A program made the position numbers and the translations under genes. A stretch of 64,000 nt of DNA from Deltaproteobacteria bacterium (lineage in GTDB: Bacteria; Desulfobacterota; Binatia; UTPRO1): contig JADYZW010000047.1 in the NCBI GenBank assembly GCA_020852955.1, positions 24,436-88,435 on the forward strand, read 5' to 3'. The notes under the pieces were generated by a model, which ran no database searches, had not been told where the DNA came from, and saw only the letters and a program-made list of their open reading frames with translations. Numbering within the stretch: the first letter of the stretch is position 1; the number at the start of each line of letters is the position of its first letter. This document shows positions 4,306 to 48,962 of this stretch, in pieces.

Positions 4306-6255
4306 ATGACCGTCGCCCGTTCGCTCGCCGCCACGGCCTTCCTCCTCGCGCTCGCGTTCGGCCCTTCCGCCGAGGCCGCCGACTACTACGTGAAGACCGG
4401 CGGCAACGACGGGCTCGACGGCCTCTCGCTCGCGACGGCGTGGGCGACGCTCGGACAGGCCGCCGACGTCGTCGACCCCGGTGACACCGTGCACGTGCAG
4501 GACGGCGACTACCAGGGATTCTACCTGGAACGCTCCGGCGCGCCGGGTCAGCCGATCACCTTCGTCGCCGAGGGCGCCGCCGTCCGGATCACGAGCGACA
4601 ACGGCACCACGCCCGACGGCATCAACCTCGAAGGCGCGAGTCACGTCGTCATCGACGGCTTCGTGGTCGACGGCCGGACGCGCGCCGGCATCCGCGCCGT
4701 GCTGGGAGCGTTCGTGACGGTTCGCAACTGCCGCGCCGGATACAATGGCCGCTGGGGCATCCTCACGGGCTTCGTCGACGACTTCACCGCCGAGTTCAAC
4801 GAAACGCACCACTCGGTCGCCGAGCACGGCATCTACGTCTCGAACAGCGGCGACCGGCCGATCCTCCGCGCCAACCACTCGCACGACAACCACGCGAACG
4901 GCATCCACATGAACGGCGACGCCGAGCAGGGCGGCGACGGCATCATCGCGAACGCGCTCGTCGAGCGCAACGTCATCCACGGGAACGGCGTCGGGGGCGG
5001 ATCCGGCATCAACATGGACGGCGTCACGGACAGCGTCGTCCGGAACAACCTGCTCTACGACAACCACGCGAGCGGGATCAGTCTCTACCGTATCGACGGT
5101 GGCGCGGCCTCGAGCGGCAACCTGGTCGTGAACAACACGATCGTGACCGCCTCGAACGGACGCTGGTGCGTGAACATCAGCGACGGCTCGACCGGGAATC
5201 GCGTGGTGAACAACGCGCTCTACAACCTGCACGGCTTCCGCGGCGTCATCACGATCGATCCGGCGAGCCGGCCCGGCTTCACGAGCGACTACAACACGGT
5301 CATGAGCCGCTTCAGCCTCGATGGCGGCGACACCGTGTCGAGCCTCGCTGCCTGGCAGGGCCAGGGCTACGATGCGCACTCGTTCGTCGCGACGCCGGCC
5401 GAGCTCTTCGTCGCAGCCGGCAGCGACTTCCACCTGAAGCCGGGGAGCCCCGCGCGCGACGCCGGCAGCGCCGCCGACGCGCCGCCCTTCGATCTCGACG
5501 ATGCGCCCCGCCCCGTCGGCGCGGGCGTCGACATCGGCGCGTACGAGGAGCAGCTCGTGAGCTGCGGCGACGGCACGGTCGACCCCGGCGAGCAGTGCGG
5601 CGAGGCCGGGCTCGCCTGCGCCGATCCGTGCACCACGTGTAGCGGCTGCACCTGCGTCCCGCCGGCGCCGGTCTGCGGCGACGCCATCGTCTGCGGCGCC
5701 GAGGAGTGCGAGGACGACGGCCAGTGCGGCGCGGCCGAGGTCTGCGCCGGCTGCCGGTGCGTGAACGCTCCGGCCTGCGCGAGCGGGATCACGCTCGGGA
5801 AAGCATCGCTCACGATGCGCGTCGCGCCGGCGAGTCTGCGCGTGCAGGGCGAGGCGCTGATCCCGCGGCCGTGGGTCGGCGTGGACCCGCTCGCGAACGG
5901 CATGCGCGTCGTGGTCGATGCGACGAGCGGAGGCGGTGGGATCGACGTGACGCTCCCGGGCGGCGGCGGGTGGACCCGCAACCGGAGCGGCACGCAGTGG
6001 ACCTACAAGGATCGCACGGGAGCGGTCGGCGGCATCACGCGGGCCGTGCTGCGGGACCGGTCGAAGCAGCTCCCCGGTCTCGTCCGCGTCACCGTGCAGG
6101 GAAAGCCCGCCGGCCTCGTGCTGCCGGCGCCGACCGTCACGCGCACGGCCCTCGTGGTCGGTACCGCCGCCGAATGCGCAAGCCTCGCCTGGAATCCGCC
6201 GACGGGGCCGAAGCCCCGCTGCATCGGGACCAGCGCGAAGCTCGCGTGCAGATGA
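4306..6255 (+). CDS. Secreted right-handed parallel beta-helix protein with Myxococcus-type Cys-rich repeats and the shared C-terminal module
   Basis: ATG 4306 is preceded by aggtggag. It has a signal peptide (MTVARSLAATAFLLALAFGPSAEA) and YYVKTGGNDGLDG followed by repeated NxxxxN/G beta-helix turns. A CGDGTVDPGEQCGE...CGAEECEDDGQCG Cys repeat precedes the C-terminal PGGGGWTRNRSGTQWTYK module. Confidence 0.8.
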   Translation: MTVARSLAATAFLLALAFGPSAEAADYYVKTGGNDGLDGLSLATAWATLGQAADVVDPGDTVHVQDGDYQGFYLERSGAPGQPITFVAEGAAVRITSDNGTTPDGINLEGASHVVIDGFVVDGRTRAGIRAVLGAFVTVRNCRAGYNGRWGILTGFVDDFTAEFNETHHSVAEHGIYVSNSGDRPILRANHSHDNHANGIHMNGDAEQGGDGIIANALVERNVIHGNGVGGGSGINMDGVTDSVVRNNLLYDNHASGISLYRIDGGAASSGNLVVNNTIVTASNGRWCVNISDGSTGNRVVNNALYNLHGFRGVITIDPASRPGFTSDYNTVMSRFSLDGGDTVSSLAAWQGQGYDAHSFVATPAELFVAAGSDFHLKPGSPARDAGSAADAPPFDLDDAPRPVGAGVDIGAYEEQLVSCGDGTVDPGEQCGEAGLACADPCTTCSGCTCVPPAPVCGDAIVCGAEECEDDGQCGAAEVCAGCRCVNAPACASGITLGKASLTMRVAPASLRVQGEALIPRPWVGVDPLANGMRVVVDATSGGGGIDVTLPGGGGWTRNRSGTQWTYKDRTGAVGGITRAVLRDRSKQLPGLVRVTVQGKPAGLVLPAPTVTRTALVVGTAAECASLAWNPPTGPKPRCIGTSAKLACR

Positions 6256-6289
6256 CGTCGCATCGGTCTCGCCCTCTGCGGCGCGCGGC

Positions 6290-6541
6290 TCAGGGCAGCC
6301 GCAGCCGGTCGAGTTCGTCGAGCCAGTAGGTCGGAAGGGCGTCCCAAGGCGTCCCGGCATCGTGCGCCTCGATGCACGTGTCGGTCGCCTTGGTGAAGGC
6401 AGCCGCGAGCTTCTGCCAGCTCGCATTCGCGCCGACGACGCACGCCTGCTGGGTCCTGGTGAGAGCGCCGTGGGCCGGCACGGTGAGGACGAGGAGCGCG
6501 GCGCATCCACCCCCGGACGGCGGCGAGCCGGGCGGGCGCAT
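6290..6541 (-). CDS. Small secreted hypothetical protein
   Basis: 83 aa with a hydrophobic N-terminus (CAALLVLTVPAHG). It starts 2 nt after the stop of the upstream SHOCT lipoprotein gene. No family recognised. Confidence 0.4.
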   Translation of the reverse strand: MRPPGSPPSGGGCAALLVLTVPAHGALTRTQQACVVGANASWQKLAAAFTKATDTCIEAHDAGTPWDALPTYWLDELDRLRLP

Positions 6542-6543
6542 CC

Positions 6544-7155
6544 TCAGTGCTCTCCGAGGATGGACTTCCGTTTCGCCGCGTACTCCTTCTCGGTGATCAG
6601 CCCTTGCGCTCGCATGCTGTTCAGCTCTTCGAGTCGGCTCGTGGTCGAGCGGCCGGCGTCGGCGCCTTCCGCGTTCACGGGGACGGGGTCGCGCGCGTCA
6701 GCGGGCAACGCGCCAGCAGCGGCCCGCACGCTGGCGACGTCGTTGATCGCGTCGAGGACGTCTTGATTCGCGCCGGTCCAGACCATGCCCCGGCGCATGA
6801 AGCTCGTATGCATGTGTGTGCCGTAAGCGTAGTCCTTCACTTCAACCCAGCCCGACGTCGACCAGAATCCCGGAGACCAGCCGATCGAGACCGTGCACGC
6901 CTTCCTGCGGACGTCCGGGTGCGCGAGTCGCGGATCGCTGTCGCTGACGACGACGAACGATCGCTCGAGCGTCGCGCTCGCTCGTTGGTAGTACTCGCCC
7001 GCGGACTGCGCGGTGAGCACCGCGTAGTCGCATCTCGCGACCGGTCCGCCGGGACCGGTTTCGCGCTTCATCGCGCAGCCCGTCCCGACCACCGGGATCA
7101 CGGCGATACAGCAGAAGAACGCGAGGGTCTGGCGCGACGGCCGGCTGACACGCAT
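6544..7155 (-). CDS. Lipoprotein with C-terminal SHOCT domain
   Basis: I re-called the start at ATG 7155 (MRVSRPSRQTLAFFCCIAVIPVVGTGC, lipobox-like VGTGC). The C-terminus LEELNSMRAQGLITEKEYAAKRKSILGEH matches the SHOCT short oligomerisation motif. Confidence 0.65.
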   Translation of the reverse strand: MRVSRPSRQTLAFFCCIAVIPVVGTGCAMKRETGPGGPVARCDYAVLTAQSAGEYYQRASATLERSFVVVSDSDPRLAHPDVRRKACTVSIGWSPGFWSTSGWVEVKDYAYGTHMHTSFMRRGMVWTGANQDVLDAINDVASVRAAAGALPADARDPVPVNAEGADAGRSTTSRLEELNSMRAQGLITEKEYAAKRKSILGEH

Positions 7156-7260
7156 CGAGGCACTCCACGGAGACAGGGGTTCACGAGTCGCTAGCGCATC
7201 GGCGATTCGCTGCGCAAGGACGATGCGACCCCCGATGCGCCGTTTCCGCCGGCCAGCGGC

Positions 7261-7301
7261 TTGCAATTGAATGGAGTTCATCTAATCTTGGAGATTCTCC
7301 A
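7261..7301 (+). promoter_or_regulatory. Putative sigma70-type promoter plus palindromic operator for the TetR-NMO operon
   Basis: This is a locally AT-richer stretch. It reads TTGCAA (7261-7266), a 16-nt spacer, TAATCT (7283-7288), then the perfect palindrome tggaga-t-tctcca (7289-7301) ending in the A of the TetR ATG. Confidence 0.4.
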
Positions 7302-8014
7302 TGATTGCGCGATCCCAGACCGGCGGCGGCACGCTGCCCCTCGGCGACGCCTCCGAAGGGCGCCGCACCCGGCGGCGCCGCGAGCTGCACCAGAGCATCC
7401 TGGAAACGGCGGCCGAGCTCTTCGCGCGGGACGGCTACGAAACCACCACGGTCGAGAAGATCGCCGCCGCCGCCGACATCGCGCCCGCGACCTTCTTCAA
7501 CCACTTCCGCAGCAAGGAGGACGTGCTGCGGGAAATCGGTCAGGACGTGTTCTCGCGTTTCCGGCGGCTGGTCGACGAGCAGCTCGAGCGCCCGGTCACG
7601 AGCATGGAGCGGCTGCACGGGTTCGCGACGCGCGGCGCGGCCCTGGTGCGGCGAGCGCCCGAGATGACCCGACGGGTGCTCATGGCCGTGCTGCGCGCGC
7701 CGCGTCCCGGCGAGGCCGGCAACGAGCTCGCCTCGATGCAGGCCGCCTTCGCGCAACTGTTGCGCCGCGGCCGCGACGACGACGCGCCCGCGAAGGACGT
7801 CCCCGACGACCTCGACGTCGAGCTCGCGGCCGAGATCCTCGTCTCGGTCGTGATCGGCGCCATGACCCATTGGATCAACGATCCCGACTATCCGCTGGAA
7901 GGCCGGCTGCGTGCCTCGTTGACGCTGCTCGCCGACCGATTGCTGACCCCCACCACCACCGCGCCCGCGGCGTCCCGACGTCCGGCGCGCCAACGCCAGA
8001 GGAAGACACCATGA
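7301..8014 (+). CDS. TetR/AcrR family transcriptional regulator
   Basis: The N-terminal HTH (ILETAAELFARDGYETTTVEKIAAAADIAPATFFNHFRSKEDVL) is typical of TetR. Its stop overlaps the next start (ATGA). Confidence 0.9.
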   Translation: MIARSQTGGGTLPLGDASEGRRTRRRRELHQSILETAAELFARDGYETTTVEKIAAAADIAPATFFNHFRSKEDVLREIGQDVFSRFRRLVDEQLERPVTSMERLHGFATRGAALVRRAPEMTRRVLMAVLRAPRPGEAGNELASMQAAFAQLLRRGRDDDAPAKDVPDDLDVELAAEILVSVVIGAMTHWINDPDYPLEGRLRASLTLLADRLLTPTTTAPAASRRPARQRQRKTP

Positions 8015-24391: not shown

Positions 24392-24577
24392 AGCCACGTC
24401 TACCACCCCCGCCCGTTCGTTCGCGTCAGCCACGGTCTCTACGCCCCGAACCCCGCCCTCGACGTCGGCGATCACGACGAATGGGACCTGATCGCCGACC
24501 TCAGGGGGCTGCCGCAGCTGTTCGCGACCACCGGCCTCGAACGCTCCCGGAGCGGCGATCCGTCGCCATGCCGGGCG

Positions 24578-26053
24578 TCAGAAGCGGAAGATTGCCTGCA
24601 TCCTGGCGAGCAGGCGGCGCGCCCTGCCCTCGTTGCTTTCCGTCGCCACGCTCTGGCCGCGGCGCTCGCGGAGCTCGCTCTGCCGGGTCGCCAGAATGCG
24701 GCTCACCGCGGCCGCGACGCTCGGCCGGGTCTTGAAGAGGGCCTCGAACCCGGCCCGCGCGACGATCAGGAGCTCCGCGTCGCCCCTGGCGCGGACCGTC
24801 GCCGAGCGCGCCTCTCCCGTGAGGAGCGCCATCTCTCCGAAGAACGCCGGCGCGCGGAGATCGGCGACGTGGGTCTCGTGGCCAGCGGCGCCCCGCGCGA
24901 CGACCTCCACGGTTCCCCGCCGCAGCACGAAGAAGGCGTCACCGGCATCGCCCTCGCGACAGATGACCTCGTCCCGGCCGAACGCGGCCTCCCGGACGTC
25001 CGGCCGCAGCATGCCGAGCGCCGCGTCGTCGAGCTCCGCCAGGAAGTCGACCTGCCGGAGGGCCGCGAGGCGCTGCTCCTGGGCGCGCGCGTCCGGGTCC
25101 CGCTGCGGCGCCGCTTCGTGCAGGTAGACGTTCCGGATCGGGAACGGAATCTCCATGTCGTGGCGGCGAAGCGCGTACCAGAGCCTGCTCATGATCGCGT
25201 CGCGGACCGCGGGCTGACGCGTGTAGTCGCGGATCCAGAACCGGATCCGATACTTGATCGCAGAGTCGCCGTAGTCCACCACCTCCGCCGTCGCCGGCGG
25301 CGTCGCGACGACGTCGGGCACGCCGCGCAGCACCTCGACGATGACCTCCTTCACCTCGTTCGGCGGAATCGCGTACGCGACGCCGACGAAGAGCTCGTCG
25401 CCGATGGCCTCGCCCCGGAAGTTGCGTACGACCTCGCGCGCGAGGAACGCGTTCGGGACGTCGAGGATCTCGAGGTTGCGGGTGACGATCGACGTCGAGC
25501 GCCACCCGATGCCCTGCACCCGGCCGACGTTGCCACCGAAGCCGATCCAGTCGCCCGGCTCGAAGGGCTTCTGCATCTGCAGCGACAGGCCGCTGAAGAC
25601 GTTGCCGAGCGTCTCCTGGAGCGCGAGGCCGATCACCGCGGTCACGATCGCGGAGGTCGTGAGGAGGCCGGAGACGTCGACGTCCACCGAGTGCAGCACC
25701 GCGAGGATGACCACGGCGTAGACCAGGAGCGTCGCGAGGTCGCGGAAGATCGTCGAGAAGTGCGCCTGGCGGCGGCGCATGACGAGGTCGGCGGTCACGG
25801 CGATGCCGCGCACGACCGCGAACGACACGGCGGCGATCGCCAGCACGAACGCGACGTTGGCCGGCCGCGACGCCAGCCACGGCATGACGGCCTCGACGAC
25901 GGTCGCGGCGACGAGGCACCAGAGCGCGCCCCCGAACCGCCGGAAGGCCGGCTGATCCCGCCCGAGCCACCACCCCCCCACCAGGATCAGAGCTCCCGCG
26001 AGCCACAGGGCGGATGTCACGAGCGGTGAGCTGAGCGTCGCAGCGTCCATCAC
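24578..26053 (-). CDS. MscS-family mechanosensitive channel with C-terminal cyclic-nucleotide-binding domain
   Basis: N-terminal TM helices are followed by an MscS beta-domain (FEPGDWIGFGGNVGRVQGIGWRSTSIVTRNLEILDVPN). The C-terminal CNB domain reads FFVLRRGTVEV...FFGEMALLTGEARSATVRA. Confidence 0.85.
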   Translation of the reverse strand: MMDAATLSSPLVTSALWLAGALILVGGWWLGRDQPAFRRFGGALWCLVAATVVEAVMPWLASRPANVAFVLAIAAVSFAVVRGIAVTADLVMRRRQAHFSTIFRDLATLLVYAVVILAVLHSVDVDVSGLLTTSAIVTAVIGLALQETLGNVFSGLSLQMQKPFEPGDWIGFGGNVGRVQGIGWRSTSIVTRNLEILDVPNAFLAREVVRNFRGEAIGDELFVGVAYAIPPNEVKEVIVEVLRGVPDVVATPPATAEVVDYGDSAIKYRIRFWIRDYTRQPAVRDAIMSRLWYALRRHDMEIPFPIRNVYLHEAAPQRDPDARAQEQRLAALRQVDFLAELDDAALGMLRPDVREAAFGRDEVICREGDAGDAFFVLRRGTVEVVARGAAGHETHVADLRAPAFFGEMALLTGEARSATVRARGDAELLIVARAGFEALFKTRPSVAAAVSRILATRQSELRERRGQSVATESNEGRARRLLARMQAIFRF

Positions 26054-26137
26054 GCCTGTCGGGTCGACGGCGCGGCACTATGCAGAAGGCGCCGCGCGCC
26101 TGTCAAATCATCCGCCCGCGTGCTAGCCCTGCGGACC

Positions 26138-27019
26138 ATGGCGGACGCGCCGATCACCGTCATCTTCGCCGACATCAGCGGCAGCACCATGCTCTGCGCG
26201 GTGCGGGGCGACGAGACCGCCTACAAGCTGGTCTCGACCTGCCTGAGCACGCTCGAAGCCGAGGTCGAGCGCTTCAACGGCCGCGTGATCAAGCGGGTCG
26301 GCGACGCCATCCTCGCCATCTTCGACGCTGCCGAGCCGGCGGTGCACGCGGCGCACGCGATGCAGGTCGCGCTTGAGGCCCCCGGCAGCGAGGTCCACGC
26401 CGAGGGCGTCCGCGTCCGGGTCGGCATCGCGACCGGCACAGCCGTCCTCGACGCGGGCGACATCTACGGCGACGTCGTCAACGTCGCCGCCCGACTCACC
26501 TCGCTCGCCGGCGCGGACGAGGTGTTCATGGCCGGCGAGACCTACGAAGGGATCCCGGCGTCGATGAAGGACAACGTCCGCGTCATCGACCAGCTCGCGC
26601 TCCGCGGCCGTCCCGACTGGGTGCTCGTCTACCAGTACCTCTGGAAGCAGGAAGGCGCGACGGTCAGCACGACCGTCCGCCCGCGCGGCTACACGGCGGC
26701 GCTCGAGGTCGCCTACCGCGGCGAGAAGTACGCCCTCGGCCCGTCGCGTCCGAAGCTCACGGTCGGCCGCGATCCCGACAACGACATCAGCATCGACGAG
26801 ACGGTCGTTTCGCGCCATCACTGCGAGGTGGTGCTGCGCGGCGACAAGTTCCTGCTGGTCGATCGCAGCACGAACGGCACCTGGGTGCTGACCGACGGCG
26901 GCGACACGTTCCGCGTGACCCGCGAGGAGATCACCCTCGCCGGCAGCGGCCGAATCCTGCCGGGACGTCAGAATCTGGAACCCCTGCGCTATAGAGTCGG
27001 GCCGCAAACCCCGGCGTGA
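26138..27019 (+). CDS. Class III adenylate/guanylate cyclase fused to an FHA domain
   Basis: The cyclase core is ITVIFADISGST...RVIKRVGDAILAIFD...VRVGIATG. The C-terminal FHA is LTVGRDPDNDISIDETVVSRHHCEVVLRGDKFLLVDRSTNGTWV. The start could instead be GTG 26120. Confidence 0.85.
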   Translation: MADAPITVIFADISGSTMLCAVRGDETAYKLVSTCLSTLEAEVERFNGRVIKRVGDAILAIFDAAEPAVHAAHAMQVALEAPGSEVHAEGVRVRVGIATGTAVLDAGDIYGDVVNVAARLTSLAGADEVFMAGETYEGIPASMKDNVRVIDQLALRGRPDWVLVYQYLWKQEGATVSTTVRPRGYTAALEVAYRGEKYALGPSRPKLTVGRDPDNDISIDETVVSRHHCEVVLRGDKFLLVDRSTNGTWVLTDGGDTFRVTREEITLAGSGRILPGRQNLEPLRYRVGPQTPA

Positions 27020-27094
27020 TCCCGGCCGCGTCACGCCCGCTTCGCGAACCCGCGTTGCGCGAACGTGGGTCGATATGGGACAACGGTGGAGTTC

Positions 27095-27799
27095 ATGGTG
27101 GTCGTGGGTGACGTGCTGTCGGATCGCGGGCTCCGCCGCGAGCTGAACGAGGACGCGTACGCGTACGAGCCCGCGCTCGATCTCTTCCTGGTCGCGGACG
27201 GCATGGGCGGCCACGCCGCGGGCGAGATCGCGAGCCGCACGGCCGCCGAGACGATCACGACCAAGCTCCAGGAGCTCCTGGCCGACGACGATCTGACCCC
27301 GTTCCGCGACGCCGACGGCAAGCCCTGCGTCGGAGCCCGCCGGCTGGTGATCGCGGTCGAATGCGCCAACGACGCCATCTTCCGGACGGCCGCGAGCAAC
27401 CCGAGCCAGCGCGGCATGGGAACCACGGTCGCCGCCCTGCACTTCGCCGACGGGTTCGCGAACCTCTGCCACGTCGGCGACAGCCGCATCTACCGCATCC
27501 GCAACGGCGCCATCGAGCGCCTCACGGAGGACCACGCGATCGCGGCGAACGTCCTCTCCCGCGCGCTCGGCGCCGAGCCGATGGTCGAGGCGAGCTGGCG
27601 GGTCGAGCCGGTTCGTCCCGGCGAGTGCTTCGTCCTCTGCACCGACGGCGTCCATGGCCAGGTGAAGGACGAGGAGATGCTCGAGATCGTCGAGCGCAAC
27701 GGCGACGATTTCGGCGCCGCCTGCCGCGAGCTGATCGCCCTCGCCAACGACCGCGGCGGCCGCGACAACTCGACCGCCCTCGTCGTCGGCGTCCGCTGA
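27095..27799 (+). CDS. PP2C-family Ser/Thr protein phosphatase
   Basis: Motifs SDRGLRRELNEDAY, FLVADGMGGHAAGEIAS, LCTDGV and GGRDNSTALVV. The start could instead be GTG 27065. Confidence 0.88.
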   Translation: MVVVGDVLSDRGLRRELNEDAYAYEPALDLFLVADGMGGHAAGEIASRTAAETITTKLQELLADDDLTPFRDADGKPCVGARRLVIAVECANDAIFRTAASNPSQRGMGTTVAALHFADGFANLCHVGDSRIYRIRNGAIERLTEDHAIAANVLSRALGAEPMVEASWRVEPVRPGECFVLCTDGVHGQVKDEEMLEIVERNGDDFGAACRELIALANDRGGRDNSTALVVGVR

Positions 27800-27823: not shown

Positions 27824-29155
27824 CTACCTCGTGGGCGCCCGAGCGCGCGGCGCCTCTCTGCCGAAGATCGCCTCGATGGTGATCTCCTTGCGCCGAGCAT
27901 CCCGCAGCACATGGTCCTTGCTGGTGTCGTGGTACAGGTGGCAGAGCATGCAGCTCGTGCCCGCCGACCGCGTCTCGCCGTCGATGTGGCAGCGCTGGCA
28001 GACGTCCTTCATCGGGAGGTTCACGTCGGCGGTCTCGGCGCTCTCGCGCACGTCGGGATGGCAGTGCTCGCACTTCAGGAGGTCGTGCGCCCGGTGCGAG
28101 AACTCGCCCCGTACGAGCCAGCGCGTCGGGATCATGGTCGGCTCGATCTCGGGGAGATCCCCCGGCGCGTGCGTGCCCTCCTCGTCGTGGCACAAGAAAC
28201 AGTACTTGTTGGCGTCGAGGAGCGACGAGGCGCCGTCGCCGAGGTTCGGGTCGAGTGGCTGATAGAGCTTGGCCTCGGCCTTGGCGAGTGCGCTCTTCGG
28301 GTTGGTCGGGTCGATAAAGGCGGCCAGCGAGACCGAGGCGTCGAGCGGGTCGCGGCGGACGCGGCCCGGGAGGCCCGGATCGGTCGAGCCGAAGATGCCG
28401 TCGGGGTTGTTCACGGCCGCGAAGAGAAGCTTCGCCTTCAGATCCTCGCGCACGACGTCGGGCGCCTCGTGCACCGCCTCGACCGACGAGTCCGGACCGA
28501 GCCCCGACTGCGCATGGCACTTCTTGCAATGCCGCTCGAAATCGATCGGCAGCATCAGCGCGCCGTCCTTCGCGGGCACGTGGCACTCGACGCACGAGAG
28601 CGTGTCGTCGGGATCGATCTTGGTGCTCGACAGATGGATCTCGTGATCGAAGCGGATCGCGGCTTCGTCGCGACGCCCGGCGCGGAGCGCCCCGAACTCC
28701 GGGTGGTCGGCGAAGGTCCGGACCGAACGCCGGATCTCGGGCTGCTCGCGCGTCGACGCAAGCTCGCCGTGGCACTCGACGCAGCTCGCGTTCGCGACGG
28801 CGAGGAACACGCCGGTGGCTCGATGCTCGACGTGACACGCCGCGCAGTCCGGCGTCTCCACCTCGGACTTCGCGTGCGTACGGTCGGTATGACAGCCGAG
28901 ACACGCCTCGGTCGGAACCCCGGCGTACGCGGCATGGCAGGTTTCGCAGCGGTCGCCGAAGCTCGCGTGCCCCTGCGACACGGGTCCCGGCAGGTACTGG
29001 CGCTGCTTCGTGCCGGCGTGGAGCCCCCACCACGCGAGGCCGCCGATCGCGACGAACAGCACCCCCACGAGCCAGTACCAGCGCCGGAAGAAGTCGGGAC
29101 GCGGGAAGAGGTCGAAGCGGAGGCGTTTCGCGAGGTCTTTGCTGTTCCGGACCAC
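27824..29155 (-). CDS. Membrane-anchored decahaem c-type cytochrome (class III/c3-like)
   Basis: One N-terminal TM helix (WYWLVGVLFVAIGGLAWWGL) followed by ten CxxCH motifs: CETCH, CLGCH, CAACH, CVECH, CVECH, CKKCH, CFLCH, CEHCH, CQRCH, CMLCH. Confidence 0.85.
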   Translation of the reverse strand: MVRNSKDLAKRLRFDLFPRPDFFRRWYWLVGVLFVAIGGLAWWGLHAGTKQRQYLPGPVSQGHASFGDRCETCHAAYAGVPTEACLGCHTDRTHAKSEVETPDCAACHVEHRATGVFLAVANASCVECHGELASTREQPEIRRSVRTFADHPEFGALRAGRRDEAAIRFDHEIHLSSTKIDPDDTLSCVECHVPAKDGALMLPIDFERHCKKCHAQSGLGPDSSVEAVHEAPDVVREDLKAKLLFAAVNNPDGIFGSTDPGLPGRVRRDPLDASVSLAAFIDPTNPKSALAKAEAKLYQPLDPNLGDGASSLLDANKYCFLCHDEEGTHAPGDLPEIEPTMIPTRWLVRGEFSHRAHDLLKCEHCHPDVRESAETADVNLPMKDVCQRCHIDGETRSAGTSCMLCHLYHDTSKDHVLRDARRKEITIEAIFGREAPRARAPTR

Positions 29156-29167
29156 CGGTACACCGAC

Positions 29168-30076
29168 TCAGTACTTGAGCGCCATGACGATGTGGAACGC
29201 CGCGAGCACGAAGAGCGCGAACGAGAGCGGCGCGTGGACGAAGAGCCAACCGTGCAGCACGTCGTGCAGGCGGCGCTGCACCGCGAGCTGGTGTGACTCC
29301 TCGCAGATGGCCGCGAGGCGCTCGAGCTTCGGGGCCCACTCCCCGGGCGCCCGCACGACGAGGGTGCGGATGTCGGGCGGGTTGGTGCGCGTGCGGGCGT
29401 CGCGCAGGAGGTACGGGCGGATCTCGCGTAGGTAAACGTCCCTGAGCAGCGCGGCCTCGGGCACGGGATCAGTCACCGGGGGCTTCCGCGCCACGGCCTT
29501 CCAGTTGCCCGGGCGCGTCTGCAGGGCGGCCTGCTCGGCGGCGAGCCGGGCCTGCTCCTCGGCGGCCTCGGGGACGACGCCGGCCAGGCTCGCGACGAGC
29601 TCGTACGCGTCGGTCGCGAGCCCCTCGCGCACGTGGTCCATCTGACCGACGAGCGTCTCGAGCGGCACGCGCTCGGTCATGATCCCCGGCAGGTACTGCT
29701 GCAGCGCCAGCCCGAAGAGGCCGCTCACCGTAACGACCGCGAACAGCGCCATGAGCGTCGTCGTGAGGGCGCCGCCGAGCCGGAGGCCGGCGTGGAAGAG
29801 GATCAGCGGCACGGCGAGGAGGCCGAGCCAGACGTGCATCTGCATCCAGACGCGCGCCGGCCCGATCCGCCACGTGCGAACCTTCTTCCGCCCCGCGAGG
29901 AGGCCGGCGAGCAGCATCGCGAGCGTCCCGAGGACGCCGTACGCGAGCCCGGGCCAGCTGCCTCCCGACGCACCGTACGGGCTCGCCGCTACGTAGAGGC
30001 GGTAGCTCACCGCGCCGGCGATCGTCGCGACGATCGTGAACGCGAGCCAGCCGCGGTGGTCCCTGTTGAGCCTCAT
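29168..30076 (-). CDS. Five-TM membrane protein with two H-x13-H pairs (putative dihaem b-type cytochrome)
   Basis: Start re-called at ATG 30076, overlapping the upstream stop (ATGA). TM3 reads HVWLGLLAVPLILFH and TM5 reads HAPLSFALFVLAAFH. A helical soluble insert of about 140 aa lies between TM4 and TM5. Confidence 0.7.
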   Translation of the reverse strand: MRLNRDHRGWLAFTIVATIAGAVSYRLYVAASPYGASGGSWPGLAYGVLGTLAMLLAGLLAGRKKVRTWRIGPARVWMQMHVWLGLLAVPLILFHAGLRLGGALTTTLMALFAVVTVSGLFGLALQQYLPGIMTERVPLETLVGQMDHVREGLATDAYELVASLAGVVPEAAEEQARLAAEQAALQTRPGNWKAVARKPPVTDPVPEAALLRDVYLREIRPYLLRDARTRTNPPDIRTLVVRAPGEWAPKLERLAAICEESHQLAVQRRLHDVLHGWLFVHAPLSFALFVLAAFHIVMALKY

Positions 30077-31941
30077 CGCAGATCGGAGGGCGCGAGAAAC
30101 TCGCCAGGAGCGACCCGGATCGCGGCGTCGTGGGGACACGCGTAGACGCAGTTCGGGCCGTCGTAGCCGGCGCAGAGGTCGCAGACCGTGGCGCGCAGCG
30201 ACACGCCCTCGCGCGGGGGCGGCGGCCGCTTCAGCTCGGAGAGCTCGACCATGTTGATGTTCCCGAAGGGACACTGGTTGGCGCAGCGCTCGCAGCCGAT
30301 GCACCAGTCCTCGATCTTGATCTCGAGCGAATCCTCGCGGCGGATCGAGCCGACCGGGCAGCCGACCATGCACTTCGGGTCGGTGCAGGAGCGGCAGGCC
30401 ATGGTGACGAGGTACCGGCCGATGCGCGGCCCGTCGCGGGTAAAGCGCGCCACCCCGTCGTGGGCGTCGGCGCAGGCGCGCACGCACTCGTCGCAGCGCG
30501 TACAGCGTTCGAGATCTATGAGCAGGACGTTCTGCGAGTTGTAGAGGTTGAGCTCGACGGTCTCCTCGAGCATCGCCTGCTCGTTCGCCGAGCGGCTGAA
30601 GGCGGCCGTCTCGAGCGCGCGCCCAGCCCGCGTCGCGGCCGCCAGCGCCGCGGCATTGGCCTCCGCGAGGCGGCCGAGCGCCTCGGCCGGGACGCGGACC
30701 ACCTCGAAGCTGTCGAGTCCGGAGGCGCGCGCGACCCGCACCGCCGCAGGCGCGTCGACCGCGGTGACGTCCTCGCGTCCGATCTCGAAGACGTACTCGA
30801 CGACGCCGATGTGATCGCCCTCGGCGAGGATGGCCTCGCGGATGCGCTCGCCGTTCAGAAGCGTGTGATTCGCGCTGTCGAGATCGACGATCCAGAGCTC
30901 GCCGTCCCGCTCCTCGACGCGGCAATGGCGACGGCCGATCGCACGGCTCTCCTTCGGCACCAGCATGTCGCAGGACTCGCTGCGACCGATCGTGATGGGC
31001 TTGGTGAGCGCCAGCTCCCGGAAGAGAGTCGGGTGCGACGCGCAGCGCAGGACCAGCCTGGTCCGCGGACGCGCCGGCATGAGCGCCTCGAAGCCGAAGG
31101 CTCCGCCGCGACCGAGATAGGTGAAGACGAACTCCCCGCCGGCCTTCGTCTGCGACATCTTGATGGTGCCGGCACGCACGAGATACAGCGCGTCGGCCGG
31201 CGTGTCCTCCGCGTAGACGACGCCGTCCGAAACCTCGTCGGAGTCGGGCGTGAGGAGCGTGCTCACCGCCGCGAGCGCCTCGATCTGCGAGGCGCTCAGC
31301 TCCGCCAGGAGCGCGCTCTGATGCAGGGTGCTGCGGATGGCGTGCGCCTCGTAGGCCTCGTCGATGGCGTCGCCGGCGCCGCGAATCGTGTCGAGCACCG
31401 AGCGCAGCATCTCGAGCGCGACGCACCGGGTCTCGGCGCGCACCGTCGCCTCGCGCGGGTAGAAATTCACGCAGGTATCGAGCCCGAAGATCTCGCCGGG
31501 ACGGATCGCCGCGGGCCCGAGGCGGCGGTCGTGCGCGAGCGTCGCGTAGCGGCTCACCTCGCCGACCTCGGGACGTCCGGGTGTCCGCTCGGCGCGCCGC
31601 GTACGGCGCCGGAAACCGTCCAAGATCCGGGCGAGCGAGCGCGGCGTACGTCCCTCGACGCTCTTCGCCTCGACCCGCTCGGGAAGGAACGCGGTCGCGG
31701 CGCCCTCGACGAGGAGAAACGCGGTCGAGCCGTAGGCGCCGGCCTCGCAGATGACCTCGCCGGGCTCGTACTCGCGCCGTACGACGGCCTTGATGCCGGG
31801 CTCGCCGGCGTCCGGCGCGGCCCCGAGCAGCGTCGGCAGCTTCAGCTTCGCGCGCTTGCTGCTCTTGAAGAAGTCGAGCTCGGCGACCTCTTCGAGTGAG
31901 AGCCACTGGCCGTCGAGGCCATCGGCGTGTCGTCGTGTCAC
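30073..31941 (-). CDS. Cytoplasmic polyferredoxin (NrfC/DmsB-like 4x[4Fe-4S]) fused to two cNMP-binding-like domains and an FHA domain
   Basis: Start re-called at GTG 31941 (gagggtgag RBS), because the upstream part of the track ORF overlaps hldD in another frame. Domains are CNB1 (GEIFGLD...REATVRAETRCVALEM), CNB2 (LYLVRAGTIKM...GGAFGFEAL) and FHA (ITIGRSESCDMLV...RRHCRVEERDGELWIVDLDSANHTLLNG). The Cys clusters are CTRCDECVRAC, CRSCTDPKCMVGCP, CIGCERCANQCP and CDLC...CVYACP. No signal or Tat motif. Confidence 0.8.
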   Translation of the reverse strand: MTRRHADGLDGQWLSLEEVAELDFFKSSKRAKLKLPTLLGAAPDAGEPGIKAVVRREYEPGEVICEAGAYGSTAFLLVEGAATAFLPERVEAKSVEGRTPRSLARILDGFRRRTRRAERTPGRPEVGEVSRYATLAHDRRLGPAAIRPGEIFGLDTCVNFYPREATVRAETRCVALEMLRSVLDTIRGAGDAIDEAYEAHAIRSTLHQSALLAELSASQIEALAAVSTLLTPDSDEVSDGVVYAEDTPADALYLVRAGTIKMSQTKAGGEFVFTYLGRGGAFGFEALMPARPRTRLVLRCASHPTLFRELALTKPITIGRSESCDMLVPKESRAIGRRHCRVEERDGELWIVDLDSANHTLLNGERIREAILAEGDHIGVVEYVFEIGREDVTAVDAPAAVRVARASGLDSFEVVRVPAEALGRLAEANAAALAAATRAGRALETAAFSRSANEQAMLEETVELNLYNSQNVLLIDLERCTRCDECVRACADAHDGVARFTRDGPRIGRYLVTMACRSCTDPKCMVGCPVGSIRREDSLEIKIEDWCIGCERCANQCPFGNINMVELSELKRPPPPREGVSLRATVCDLCAGYDGPNCVYACPHDAAIRVAPGEFLAPSDLR

Positions 31942-46461: not shown

Positions 46462-48882
46462 TCAGGCGGGTGGAATCGTCAACTTCACGGGACCTTTGAT
46501 CTTCGCGACGCACGCCAACCGATACTTCACGGGATTCCAGTCGAGCTGCCGCACCTTTTCGATGGTGGGCCGCTCCATGCCGCCCGGATCGGGCGGCACG
46601 AAGTGCTCGGCGCCCTCGATGATCTCGACCGTGCAGAGGCCGCACTGGCCGATCTTGCACTCCCAATCGAGCGGCTCTTCGTGATGATCGCGCGGCGCGC
46701 CGTCCTTGCCGACCTTGCAATCGGGAAAGCGCGTGACGAGCTCGTGGAAATACGCGTGCAGCAGGTCCTGGTCCGGCGCGACCGGGATCGTGAGCTTGTA
46801 CTTCTCGTAGTCGAGCGCGGCGACGAGCCCGCCCGCGGTGGCGGCGGCGAGCGCGGCCGGAGCGGGTGCGGCCGGAGCGGCCGCGGCAGGCGGCGCGGCG
46901 GCGTGCGGCGCGGCGACGACCACGTCGCTCGGCGCGAGCTTCGATACCGGCGCGAACCGTTCGAAGCGGAACCGCTTGCTCGCGACCCGGAACTCGTCGC
47001 CGTTCGCGAGCCGGGTCGGCGCCGTCAGCTTCACGTACGTGCCGTTCTTGCTCCCGAGATCGAAGATGCCGAGCGCGCCGCCCTCGATCCGCAACTGCGC
47101 GTGGCGCCGGGACAAGCTCAGATCCGCCTTGTCGAGGGACACCGCCTCGACCCGGCCGACGATCATCCCCTTGCCTGGGATCGGATAGGTTTCCCGCTGC
47201 ACGCCCTCGGCGTCGAAGTGGGTGACGGCCCAGCCGTTCCCCTGCTCCACGACCATGAGGATCTGCGCGCCGATCCAGACGAGGTCGTTCGCGACGAGCG
47301 GCCGCCCCTCCTGCCCTTTGGCGCGGAGCCACACGCCGGCCCCGCCGCTCTCGTCCTCGAGCGCGTAGCCGTCGTCCTGGCGGGTCAGGAGCGCGTGCGT
47401 GTCGGCCATGTAGACGTCGTCGGCGCAGGCGATGTCGGGCGTCTTCCTGCCGATCGTGACCTGATCCTTCGTGAGCGGGAACGCCTCTTCCGGCGAGTCG
47501 TCGGGATGGAGGCTCACCAGCTGCGCCGCGCTCGCCGGACGCTTGGCGGCCTCGGCGTGCGACGGCGCCGGCGGCACGACGACCGGCGGCGGCGGAGCGC
47601 TCGGCGCCACGGACGGCGCGCTCGAGGGCGCGGCGGCCGCCGGCTTCGGCGGCGCGGGCGCCGGCGTCGGCGTCGGCGCCACCTCGGACTTCGGCACCTC
47701 CATGCCGGCGCGCAGCGCGATCGCCTCGACCGCCTTCACCGCATCGACCATGGCGGCCTTGATGTTGCGCTTCTCGACGACCTGCTCGTACGAGCCCGCG
47801 TCGTCGAAATCCTTGCAGCGCAGATATTTCGGCCCGCGCGCGTCGCCCACCAGGAACACGCCCGGCAACGACACCTCGCCGTCGTGGTTCACCAGCATCT
47901 GCGGTCGGTTGTTGAGGAGCGGGATCTTGATGCCGCAGCCTTGCAGCAGCTTCACCGGCAGGTCCTCGCCGATGCAGGCCACCACCTGATCCTTGGCGAA
48001 CTCGAGGTGGACGGTCTCACAGGGCCTGCCCGCCGAGATCTTGCGGTCGATCCGCACCGACAGGTACTCGAGCTTGTCGTCGGCGGTGACCACCGCGACG
48101 GGCTCCGAGAACGCGAGATAGCGGACGTTGCCGTTCCCGACGTAGGCGGAGAAGAACACCTCGGAGAGCGCCCGCGACACCTTCGGCATGCCGCCGCCGC
48201 GATACGACCAGTAGATCGCGCTCTGATCCTCGCCCGCGATCTTCGCGCCCGAGATCGCGATCACCGCCTCCGCCGCCGACGTGCCGCCGCCGATCACGAG
48301 CGCGGGCCTCCCGACGTAGTCCTTCGCGTCGTCGAGGCGGAACGCGATGCCGTCGGTGTTGCCGGGGATGTCGAACCGGCGCGGCACGCCCGCGCCGATC
48401 GCGAGGAGGACATTGCGCGCTTGGTAGCGCTCTTCCTCGCCGGTGCGATGGTTCCAGGTCCGGACGCTCCACACGCCCTCGGGCAGCCGGTCGAGCCCCG
48501 TGAACTCGTGGCCGATCTTCGCGGTCAGGCCGTACTCCTTGTACTTGGCCTTCCAGACCTTCACGAGATCGTCCTTGTCGATGTCGTCGAACGCGAGGGC
48601 CGCGAGCATCGGCCCGCCGGCCGGGAACTGGAGCTTGTCGCCGCCGCCGTAGCTCGGAAGGATCTGCTTCTCCTTCGGGTAGTCGCGGATGCGCTTCATC
48701 AGGTCGTCGTAGTCGACGACCAGGCAGGAGAGTCCGAGCTCCTTGCAGCGCACCGCCGCCGCGGTGCCGGCGGGACCGCCGCCCGCGACGAAGACGTCGA
48801 CGACGTCCGGCACGGCAGCCGGCTGGTCGACCTTCAGCGTCCCTCGGCGGGTATAGTCCGCCTCGTCTATCTTGTCGGACAT
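46462..48882 (-). CDS. FAD/NAD(P)-binding oxidoreductase fused to two FHA domains and a plant-type [2Fe-2S] ferredoxin domain
   Basis: Start re-called at ATG 48882 (MSDKIDEADY). FAD fold VDVFVAGGGPAGTAAA, second nucleotide fold PALVIGGGTSAAEA, then GVFLVGDA. After a Pro/Ala linker come FHA1 (VTIGRKTPDIACADDVYMADTHALLTRQDDGYALEDES) and FHA2 (MIVGRVEAVSLDKADLSLSRRHAQLRIEGGALGIFDLGSKNGTYV). The C-terminal CKIGQCGLC...LAC matches the C-x4-C-x2-C...C ferredoxin pattern. No signal peptide. Confidence 0.8.
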   Translation of the reverse strand: MSDKIDEADYTRRGTLKVDQPAAVPDVVDVFVAGGGPAGTAAAVRCKELGLSCLVVDYDDLMKRIRDYPKEKQILPSYGGGDKLQFPAGGPMLAALAFDDIDKDDLVKVWKAKYKEYGLTAKIGHEFTGLDRLPEGVWSVRTWNHRTGEEERYQARNVLLAIGAGVPRRFDIPGNTDGIAFRLDDAKDYVGRPALVIGGGTSAAEAVIAISGAKIAGEDQSAIYWSYRGGGMPKVSRALSEVFFSAYVGNGNVRYLAFSEPVAVVTADDKLEYLSVRIDRKISAGRPCETVHLEFAKDQVVACIGEDLPVKLLQGCGIKIPLLNNRPQMLVNHDGEVSLPGVFLVGDARGPKYLRCKDFDDAGSYEQVVEKRNIKAAMVDAVKAVEAIALRAGMEVPKSEVAPTPTPAPAPPKPAAAAPSSAPSVAPSAPPPPVVVPPAPSHAEAAKRPASAAQLVSLHPDDSPEEAFPLTKDQVTIGRKTPDIACADDVYMADTHALLTRQDDGYALEDESGGAGVWLRAKGQEGRPLVANDLVWIGAQILMVVEQGNGWAVTHFDAEGVQRETYPIPGKGMIVGRVEAVSLDKADLSLSRRHAQLRIEGGALGIFDLGSKNGTYVKLTAPTRLANGDEFRVASKRFRFERFAPVSKLAPSDVVVAAPHAAAPPAAAAPAAPAPAALAAATAGGLVAALDYEKYKLTIPVAPDQDLLHAYFHELVTRFPDCKVGKDGAPRDHHEEPLDWECKIGQCGLCTVEIIEGAEHFVPPDPGGMERPTIEKVRQLDWNPVKYRLACVAKIKGPVKLTIPPA

Positions 48883-48962
48883 CGACCCCGATCCCTTCTC
48901 GGGAACACCACGCCGCCCCACCGTAGAAGCCGCGCCTTCCTACTGATTCGGCGTCGAAGTTG

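Follow-up and report, generated by a model that had tools for sequence, protein, structure and literature searches.

How electrons could cross the inner membrane between an iron-sulfur (Fe-S) protein in the cytoplasm and a decahaem cytochrome c on the far side is the question raised by three adjoining genes in a 64,000-nucleotide stretch of DNA (the window) from a Deltaproteobacteria bacterium (lineage Desulfobacterota; Binatia; UTPRO1; GenBank assembly GCA_020852955.1, contig JADYZW010000047.1, forward-strand positions 24,436 to 88,435). The middle gene, on the minus strand of the window (30076..29168, stop codon included), encodes a protein of 302 residues, P0001. A first reading, made from the sequence alone and without database searches, had seen in it five transmembrane (TM) helices, two of them with histidines spaced as in the cytochrome b of bc1 complexes, and had proposed an unannotated dihaem cytochrome b that connects its two neighbours. 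Starting from the anatomy of P0001, its conservation, a rule-based topology and its gene linkage, all of which are direct observations, we conclude that P0001 is probably the membrane subunit of a three-gene module and would most likely hold two b haems, each between a pair of histidines, as a wire from the Fe-S protein to the decahaem cytochrome.

With a G+C content of 71%, the window carries long spurious open reading frames in all frames, so the frame of P0001 needed confirmation by homology. Hundreds of conserved full-length homologues, with 33-91% identity, rule out a chance open frame in GC-rich DNA. The gene is single-copy in its own genome; it starts with an ATG at 30076 that shares bases with the TGA ending the upstream gene (ATGA), and 12 nucleotides lie between its own stop and the GTG (29155) with which the decahaem gene begins. 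When 1.84 billion cluster representatives were scanned in full, 2158 family members (clusters at 50% identity) were found at an expectation value (E) of 1e-3 or below and 332 at 1e-30 or below, and word-indexed searches yielded hundreds more homologues, every one labelled 'hypothetical protein'. Within the class of the source genome, a match is present in 29 of 121 species genomes, about a quarter, and in 19 of 65 genera. Some 17 of those 29 genomes encode full-length orthologues, and the remainder represent sister clades that align over TM1-4 only, match the family at E values of only 1e-15 to 1e-29, and share the plan of four TM helices, a cytoplasmic insert and a fifth TM helix, with H-x13-H on TM3 and TM5. 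Relatives of the locus occur in at least 571 species genomes, and their carriers include Binatia, 'Deltaproteobacteria', Acidobacteriota, Rokubacteria/Methylomirabilota, Verrucomicrobiota, Planctomycetota and others.

The strings on which the sequence-only reading was built are exact in the translation: TM3 contains H81-VWLGLLAVPLILF-H95 and TM5 contains H281-APLSFALFVLAAF-H295, each with 13 residues between the histidines. These histidines hardly vary among the 150 best representatives, chosen to share no more than 50% identity pairwise, with H81 present in 149 of 149, H95 in 148 of 149, H281 in 141 of 141 and H295 in 140 of 140. The same four columns are invariant or at least 90% conserved in each of three alignments (A1, A2 and A3), and four conserved histidines, two per TM helix, as in a dihaem cytochrome b, are found throughout the family and in the sister clades too. 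A near-invariant tryptophan (W77 and W277) stands four residues ahead of the first histidine of each pair, making both ligand helices W-x3-H-x13-H. TM2 has near-invariant glycines (G38/G43/G47/G50) and TM4 a near-invariant Ser/Gly cluster (S118/G119/G122); so conserved, too, are the arginines R63 and R70 between TM2 and TM3, residues Q126, P130 and E140, and, just below TM5, C258, Q267, H271 and H275. The TM2 glycines and the TM4 Ser/Gly cluster lie at the depths of the outer and inner histidine pairs, respectively. Glycines that pack on haems are a known pattern of cytochrome b, where they are conserved on helices A and C. By that parallel, the clusters in P0001 would suit a TM2-TM3-TM4-TM5 bundle with two porphyrins held between its helices.

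By hydropathy, P0001 has five hydrophobic segments (listed by residue in Table 1), which bears out the five helices first proposed. An AlphaFold2 model built with 88 homologues (predicted local distance difference test score 92.8, predicted template-modelling score 0.82) agrees, with helices at residues 5-31, 41-65, 74-96, 103-136 and 245-301 and four shorter ones between 143 and 242. Because they are rich in lysine and arginine, with three such residues in the N-terminus and six, without an acidic residue, in the TM2-TM3 loop RKKVRTWRIGPAR (including RKKVRTWR), the positive-inside rule places these two regions in the cytoplasm; the loops TM1-TM2 and TM3-TM4 carry no charge and lie outside. 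It follows from this topology that TM3 and TM5 share an in-to-out direction, that the insert is cytoplasmic, and that the C-terminus, which ends 2 residues past TM5, is outside. By hydropathy and the same rule, H81 and H281 sit 5-6 residues in from the cytoplasmic face, and H95 and H295 the same distance in from the outer one. The histidines are inside the membrane core, as first supposed, in pairs of matched depth on helices of the same direction, which is the arrangement of a dihaem cytochrome b.

Between TM4 and TM5, the soluble insert of about 140 residues rich in alanine, glutamate and arginine that had been described at first measures 149 residues (128-276; A 14%, L 13%, R 11%, E 9%), so the description was a fair one; helical extensions of TM4 and TM5 make up part of it. 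Insert length varies widely across the family, and homologues of 270-880 residues differ in that region only. This insert is a likely docking surface for the Fe-S subunit. In the Planctomycetota homologues P0173, P0202, P0130, P0147 and P0264, it extends to 300-600 residues of Ala/Pro/Lys-rich low-complexity sequence in which a short motif (K-L-SPLEQMKAKAA, or LSAADKIAMMRAGK) recurs many times in tandem and could be a repeated docking peptide. A Pfam search of ten long-insert homologues found no flavin or NAD domain in the loop, and the inserts consisted of low-complexity repeats.

Gene order connects P0001 to electron carriers on both sides of the membrane. Flanking frames were scored in the best 80 of the at least 571 matching species genomes. 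In about 66 of the 80, the upstream frame ends in two Fer4 motifs, and in about 66 the downstream frame contains exactly ten CxxCH motifs, the exceptions being contig ends or failures of a crude frame picker. The placement between an Fe-S protein and a decahaem cytochrome that the first reading pointed out is therefore nearly invariant across several phyla. The N-terminus of the decahaem cytochrome is kept across phyla as well, with a basic cytoplasmic tail (TKKLAQRIDLNYFKR-like) followed by a single TM anchor, and the motif GPVSxAHA ahead of the first haem site. This TM helix looks uncleaved both in the window (27824-29155) and in the downstream genes of loci L006-L085, which suggests that the anchor belongs to the membrane complex rather than to a cleaved signal peptide. 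The anchor may pack against the five-helix subunit.

Variation among the partners hints at the electron source. In Acidobacteriota, Rokubacteria, Verrucomicrobiota and others, the N-terminal part of the Fe-S partner consists of NuoG-like 2Fe-2S/4Fe-4S domains, and a gene for a NuoF-like NADH/FMN subunit comes before it. In a sister clade of the same class (locus L128, 1515-6666), a single 848-residue protein directly upstream of the b gene combines Pyr_redox_2, two cyclic nucleotide monophosphate (cNMP)-binding domains and 2x[4Fe-4S]. The decahaem cytochrome of that locus has an N-terminal FHA domain ahead of its membrane anchor, so FHA domains move between subunits of the module among lineages. 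Another sister clade has a divergent Fer4/Pyr_redox_3 gene, with an 18-haem cytochrome following.

Several results weigh against a two-haem wire. Pfam matches to P0001 are all below threshold, with Ferric_reduct (PF01794) at 16.1 bits (E 0.012, residues 47-106; gathering threshold, 28 bits) and DUF4405 (PF14358) at 15.5 bits (E 0.025), or 17.2 bits in the genome scan (threshold, 26.7), and no NCBIfam model matches it. When hhalign was run against DUF4405 and FRD alignments assembled from genomes of the same phylum, it aligned single W-x3-H-x13-H helices (E 0.024 and 2.7e-4), and a small FRD alignment gave an E value of 0.011 at a probability of 4%. A sequence-profile search of PDB returned coiled-coil noise on the insert only, and Foldseek found no meaningful match to the full AlphaFold2 model in PDB, the best being a TorS sensor (E 0.57). 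Mean-field direct coupling analysis of 341 sequences (effective number, 203) for a contact between TM3 and TM5 placed physically implausible pairs at the top and was discarded; the adjacency of these helices and the His-His geometry are what we infer for P0001. Both the direction of electron flow and the lack of a quinone site are likewise purely matters of interpretation. Finally, two or more H-x13-H pairs turn up in 1.8% of 200,000 shuffles of P0001. The motif alone is thus weak evidence for haem ligation, and the evidence must rest on conservation and placement. What lifts it above chance is that it lies in two TM helices running in parallel and is invariant across the family.

The faint similarities that do exist have a direction. 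Across 63 diverse members, weak Pfam matches fall on DUF4405 (28 of 63), Ferric_reduct (17 of 63; best E 2.8e-4), Ni_hydr_CYTB (6 of 63) and PepSY_TM (1 of 63), which we take to be one Pfam clan of two-haem membrane cytochromes. None of these matches is above threshold, and unrelated families each turn up in three members at most. For P0001 itself, Ni_hydr_CYTB gives an E value of 3.2, and the DUF4405 and Ferric_reduct matches both include TM3, the latter spanning TM2-TM3. Two homologues of 60% identity have a precomputed PF14358 match, and W-x3-H-x13-H is a motif that the ligand helices of P0001 have in common with DUF4405. A comparison of the family profile with single Escherichia coli MsrQ and YodB sequences by hhalign gave no match. 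Homology to the DUF4405/FRD families is suggestive, and by its sequence P0001 is best described as a separate family with a faint affinity to that group. A bona fide Ferric_reduct (PF01794) protein, above threshold, is encoded elsewhere in the same genome (G000:C59:101204-101539), so P0001 is not the organism's sole FRD-like candidate.

Comparison with characterized proteins helps place the family. The ferric-reductase superfamily (NOX/DUOX, yeast Fre, plant FRO, STEAP, MsrQ/YedZ; PF01794) has its histidine pairs on TM3 and TM5 at a spacing of 13 (12-13 in NOX), and those of P0001 are on TM3 and TM5 with 13/13 spacing, yet P0001 has five TM helices rather than six, and its TM4-TM5 loop is enlarged to about 150 residues or more. 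In both, the N-terminus is inside and electrons move outward from a cytoplasmic NAD(P)H/flavin donor, although for P0001 this flow is presumed. Instead of a fused FAD/NADPH domain, P0001 has a separate Fe-S donor and a multihaem cytochrome c acceptor. DUF4405, the most frequent weak match of the family and one with which it shares the ligand helix motif, is described as having six TM helices and is tied to ApbE flavinylation or ferrosomes, not to Fe-S and decahaem partners as P0001 is, and its similarity to P0001 is confined to single helices below threshold. A DUF4405 protein was shown by pyridine haemochrome assay to bind haem b, and haem b binding has also been shown experimentally for FezC, whose haem sites are formed through dimerization (10.1101/2024.03.13.584918).

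The bc1-like geometry first proposed for P0001 stands in part. Cytochrome b of bc1/b6f complexes also has H-x13-H on two TM helices, conserved glycines on the flanking helices and two stacked low-spin haems, and the spacing and conservation of the histidines in P0001 match this. Kinship does not: the bc1/b6f protein has two quinone sites and eight helices, of which B and D bear the ligands, Cytochrome_B and Cytochrom_B_N have no Pfam match to P0001 even at E values up to 10, and membership in the bc1-type cytochrome b family was rejected after Pfam, PDB profile and Foldseek searches found no similarity. The faint signal lies with DUF4405, ferric reductases and b561 proteins, and the bc1 resemblance is by analogy only. 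Complexes of the Tmc, Hmc and DsrMKJOP types in sulfate reducers, and CbcL, ImcH and CymA in metal reducers, do the same overall job of linking, at the inner membrane, periplasmic multihaem c cytochromes to cytoplasmic Fe-S proteins or the electron-transport chain, but with membrane subunits of the NarI/HdrE, NapC/NirT or HydC/FdnI types that have other histidine spacings and mostly quinone chemistry. No sequence relation of P0001 to the membrane subunits of these systems was detected.

One published arrangement resembles the locus closely. In full-text literature searches, a single paper described an Fe-S/P0001-like/decahaem arrangement, in which the putative ptdABCDEFG cluster includes PtdF, labelled 'ferric reductase-like' at the annotation level (Elbon, Stewart and Glass; bioRxiv 10.1101/2023.11.21.568154). 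The first reading had found the family unannotated and unrecognizable, which holds for Pfam and NCBIfam, where no model reaches threshold, and must be qualified by this one label. PtdF has the same position and neighbours as P0001, and the window, too, carries a porin/multihaem gene train near the module. Flanking of the ptd type, with cNMP-binding 2x[4Fe-4S] upstream and a decahaem cytochrome downstream, is found in the window, in about 66 of the 80 scored species genomes and in Thalassoroseus pseudoceratinae. Unlike the ptd description, the Fe-S subunit next to P0001 carries an FHA domain as well. The ptd paper (10.1101/2023.11.21.568154) contains no haem-ligand, topology or family analysis and no biochemistry; orthology between P0001 and PtdF is suggested by architecture, not by sequence.

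The main rival to a wire through the membrane is a quinone site. P0001 could be a quinone-reactive dihaem b, like NarI, FdnI, CybB or Geobacter CbcL, working between the menaquinone pool and the decahaem cytochrome, with the Fe-S protein as a regulator or conditional donor. Most bacterial dihaem b membrane subunits that are paired with Fe-S subunits have quinol/quinone sites, a precedent that we count in favour of this alternative, and the weak Ni_hydr_CYTB/b561 matches (6 of 63 members; E 1.5e-4 in sister clades) lean the same way. A quinone pocket could be formed by Q126, H271, H275 and E140, which are conserved, polar and close to the cytoplasmic face. We nonetheless judge a quinone site unlikely, given the strict coupling of the b gene with a cytoplasmic Fe-S protein that in other lineages is fused to complete NAD(P)H-oxidizing modules. 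These fusions put a donor already at hand without quinone. Pfam, PDB and Foldseek searches also found no significant similarity of P0001 to quinone-reactive b families.

Other alternatives concern the haems themselves. The ferric-reductase superfamily has single-haem members, which counts for the idea that P0001 holds one haem only, as MsrQ and STEAP do. Haems might also be held between two copies of the protein; FezC builds its sites by dimerization, and the intramolecular geometry in P0001 is a presumed one. With either variant, the second histidine pair would do something else, such as forming a metal site or a contact with the partner cytochrome. Against both variants, the four histidines are equally invariant and form two depth-matched pairs on parallel helices, with a Gly cluster of its own at each level, and we regard either variant as very improbable. 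Lower still is the likelihood we give to conserved histidines that bind no haem, in a P0001 that is a metal-ion transporter, a sensor, or no more than a membrane anchor or scaffold for its two partner proteins. Such a role would agree with the lack of significant homology to a proven haem protein in Pfam, NCBIfam, PDB and Foldseek searches, with weak HlyIII matches of the sister clades, and with the long, regulatory-looking cytoplasmic insert. It would leave unexplained why P0001 is encoded between redox proteins on opposite sides of the membrane that otherwise have no electronic connection, and two parallel TM helices that each bear H-x13-H, flanked by Gly clusters, are the classical signature of a dihaem protein.

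For the two-haem wire, we propose the following model. The module would consist of a cytoplasmic cNMP/FHA/2x[4Fe-4S] protein, P0001 and a membrane-anchored periplasmic decahaem cytochrome c. An inner haem b would be held by H81 and H281 near the cytoplasmic face and an outer haem b by H95 and H295 near the periplasmic face, about 21 Å away, with the Gly clusters making room for the porphyrins, that of TM2 at the outer level and that of TM4 at the inner one. Electrons would pass from the clusters of the upstream Fe-S protein, docked on the insert, to the inner haem, the outer haem and then the first haem of the decahaem cytochrome, although the direction could be reversed. In its logic, the module would resemble an NADPH oxidase or ferric reductase, but divided among subunits and with a multihaem cytochrome, rather than O2 or Fe(III), at the end of the chain. 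NAD(P)H is the probable ultimate cytoplasmic donor, by way of a flavoprotein such as the candidate in Table 1 or of NuoF/NuoG-like modules. Signals in the form of cNMP and phosphothreonine would act on the Fe-S subunit; genes for a cNMP-binding MscS-like channel, a PP2C and a cyclase-FHA are neighbours of the module. More tentatively, the family may form the core of a widespread quinone-independent 'split NADPH oxidase' (an NAD(P)H:multihaem-cytochrome oxidoreductase) that exports electrons to porin-cytochrome conduits, or imports them, under the control of cyclic nucleotide/FHA signalling, a proposal that we place somewhat short of probable.

Coordinates of the module and of the parts of P0001 are given in Table 1. 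Beside the module, window positions 24578-27799 encode the MscS-like channel (minus strand), a class III cyclase-FHA (plus strand) and a PP2C phosphatase (plus strand), a set that also flanks the module in an 80%-identical relative on a 7-Mb contig (locus L005). In that relative, genes for a SnoaL_2-like protein and a molybdopterin oxidoreductase lie directly upstream of the cNMP-FHA-Fe-S gene (4947-7993); the window has neither gene at this position, where an epimerase gene abuts instead. In the cultured planctomycete Thalassoroseus pseudoceratinae (GCA_011634775.1; locus L131, 6717-16653), a cNMP+Fer4 protein, a b protein of 795 residues and a multihaem cytochrome are encoded in a row, followed by a c554-like cytochrome and another multihaem cytochrome.

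Table 1. Window coordinates of the three-gene module, a candidate electron donor and the segments of P0001
Feature	Window position	Strand	Basis
P0001 gene, candidate dihaem cytochrome b (PtdF-like)	29168..30076	-	Open frame, ATGA overlap, full-length homologues of 33-91% identity
Upstream partner: two cNMP-binding domains, FHA, C-terminal 2x[4Fe-4S] ferredoxin domain (PtdE-like); start codon uncertain	30073..31941	-	Pfam
Downstream partner: decahaem cytochrome c, 10 CxxCH, basic N-terminal tail, single TM anchor (PtdG-like)	27824..29155	-	Sequence
Candidate cytoplasmic electron donor: Pyr_redox_2 FAD/NAD(P)H flavoprotein with FHA domains	46462..48921	-	Pfam
TM1, residues 10-31, in to out; preceded by basic cytoplasmic N-terminus; conserved H7 and W10	29984..30049	-	Hydropathy, charge count, AlphaFold2 helix 5-31, conservation
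TM2, residues 42-62, out to in; invariant G43/G47/G50 at depth of outer His pair	29891..29953	-	Hydropathy, AlphaFold2, conservation
TM3, residues 76-99, in to out; W77-x3-H81-x13-H95; codons H81 29834-29836, H95 29792-29794	29780..29851	-	Sequence, conservation
TM4, residues 103-127, out to in; conserved S118/G119/G122 at depth of inner His pair, and Q126	29696..29770	-	Hydropathy, AlphaFold2, conservation
Cytoplasmic helical insert, residues 128-276; conserved P130, E140, C258, Q267, H271, H275	29249..29695	-	Positive-inside topology, AlphaFold2 helices
TM5, residues 277-300, in to out; W277-x3-H281-x13-H295; codons H281 29234-29236, H295 29192-29194	29177..29248	-	Sequence, conservation

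To our knowledge, all characterized routes by which periplasmic multihaem cytochromes are supplied with electrons for transfer out of the cell (CymA, ImcH, CbcL) start at the quinone pool. The P0001 family may offer a different entry at the inner membrane, in which a two-haem wire would lead from cytoplasmic Fe-S/flavin modules, as in eukaryotic NADPH oxidases, to a decahaem cytochrome; if true, extracellular electron transfer would have a new way in that bypasses the quinone pool. The family is spread over phyla of soil, groundwater and marine habitats and has neither a model nor biochemistry. Defining it would provide an annotation marker for a new respiratory or redox-balancing module and would make the role of 'ptd' clusters testable, with at least one cultured carrier, Thalassoroseus pseudoceratinae, as a possible experimental host.

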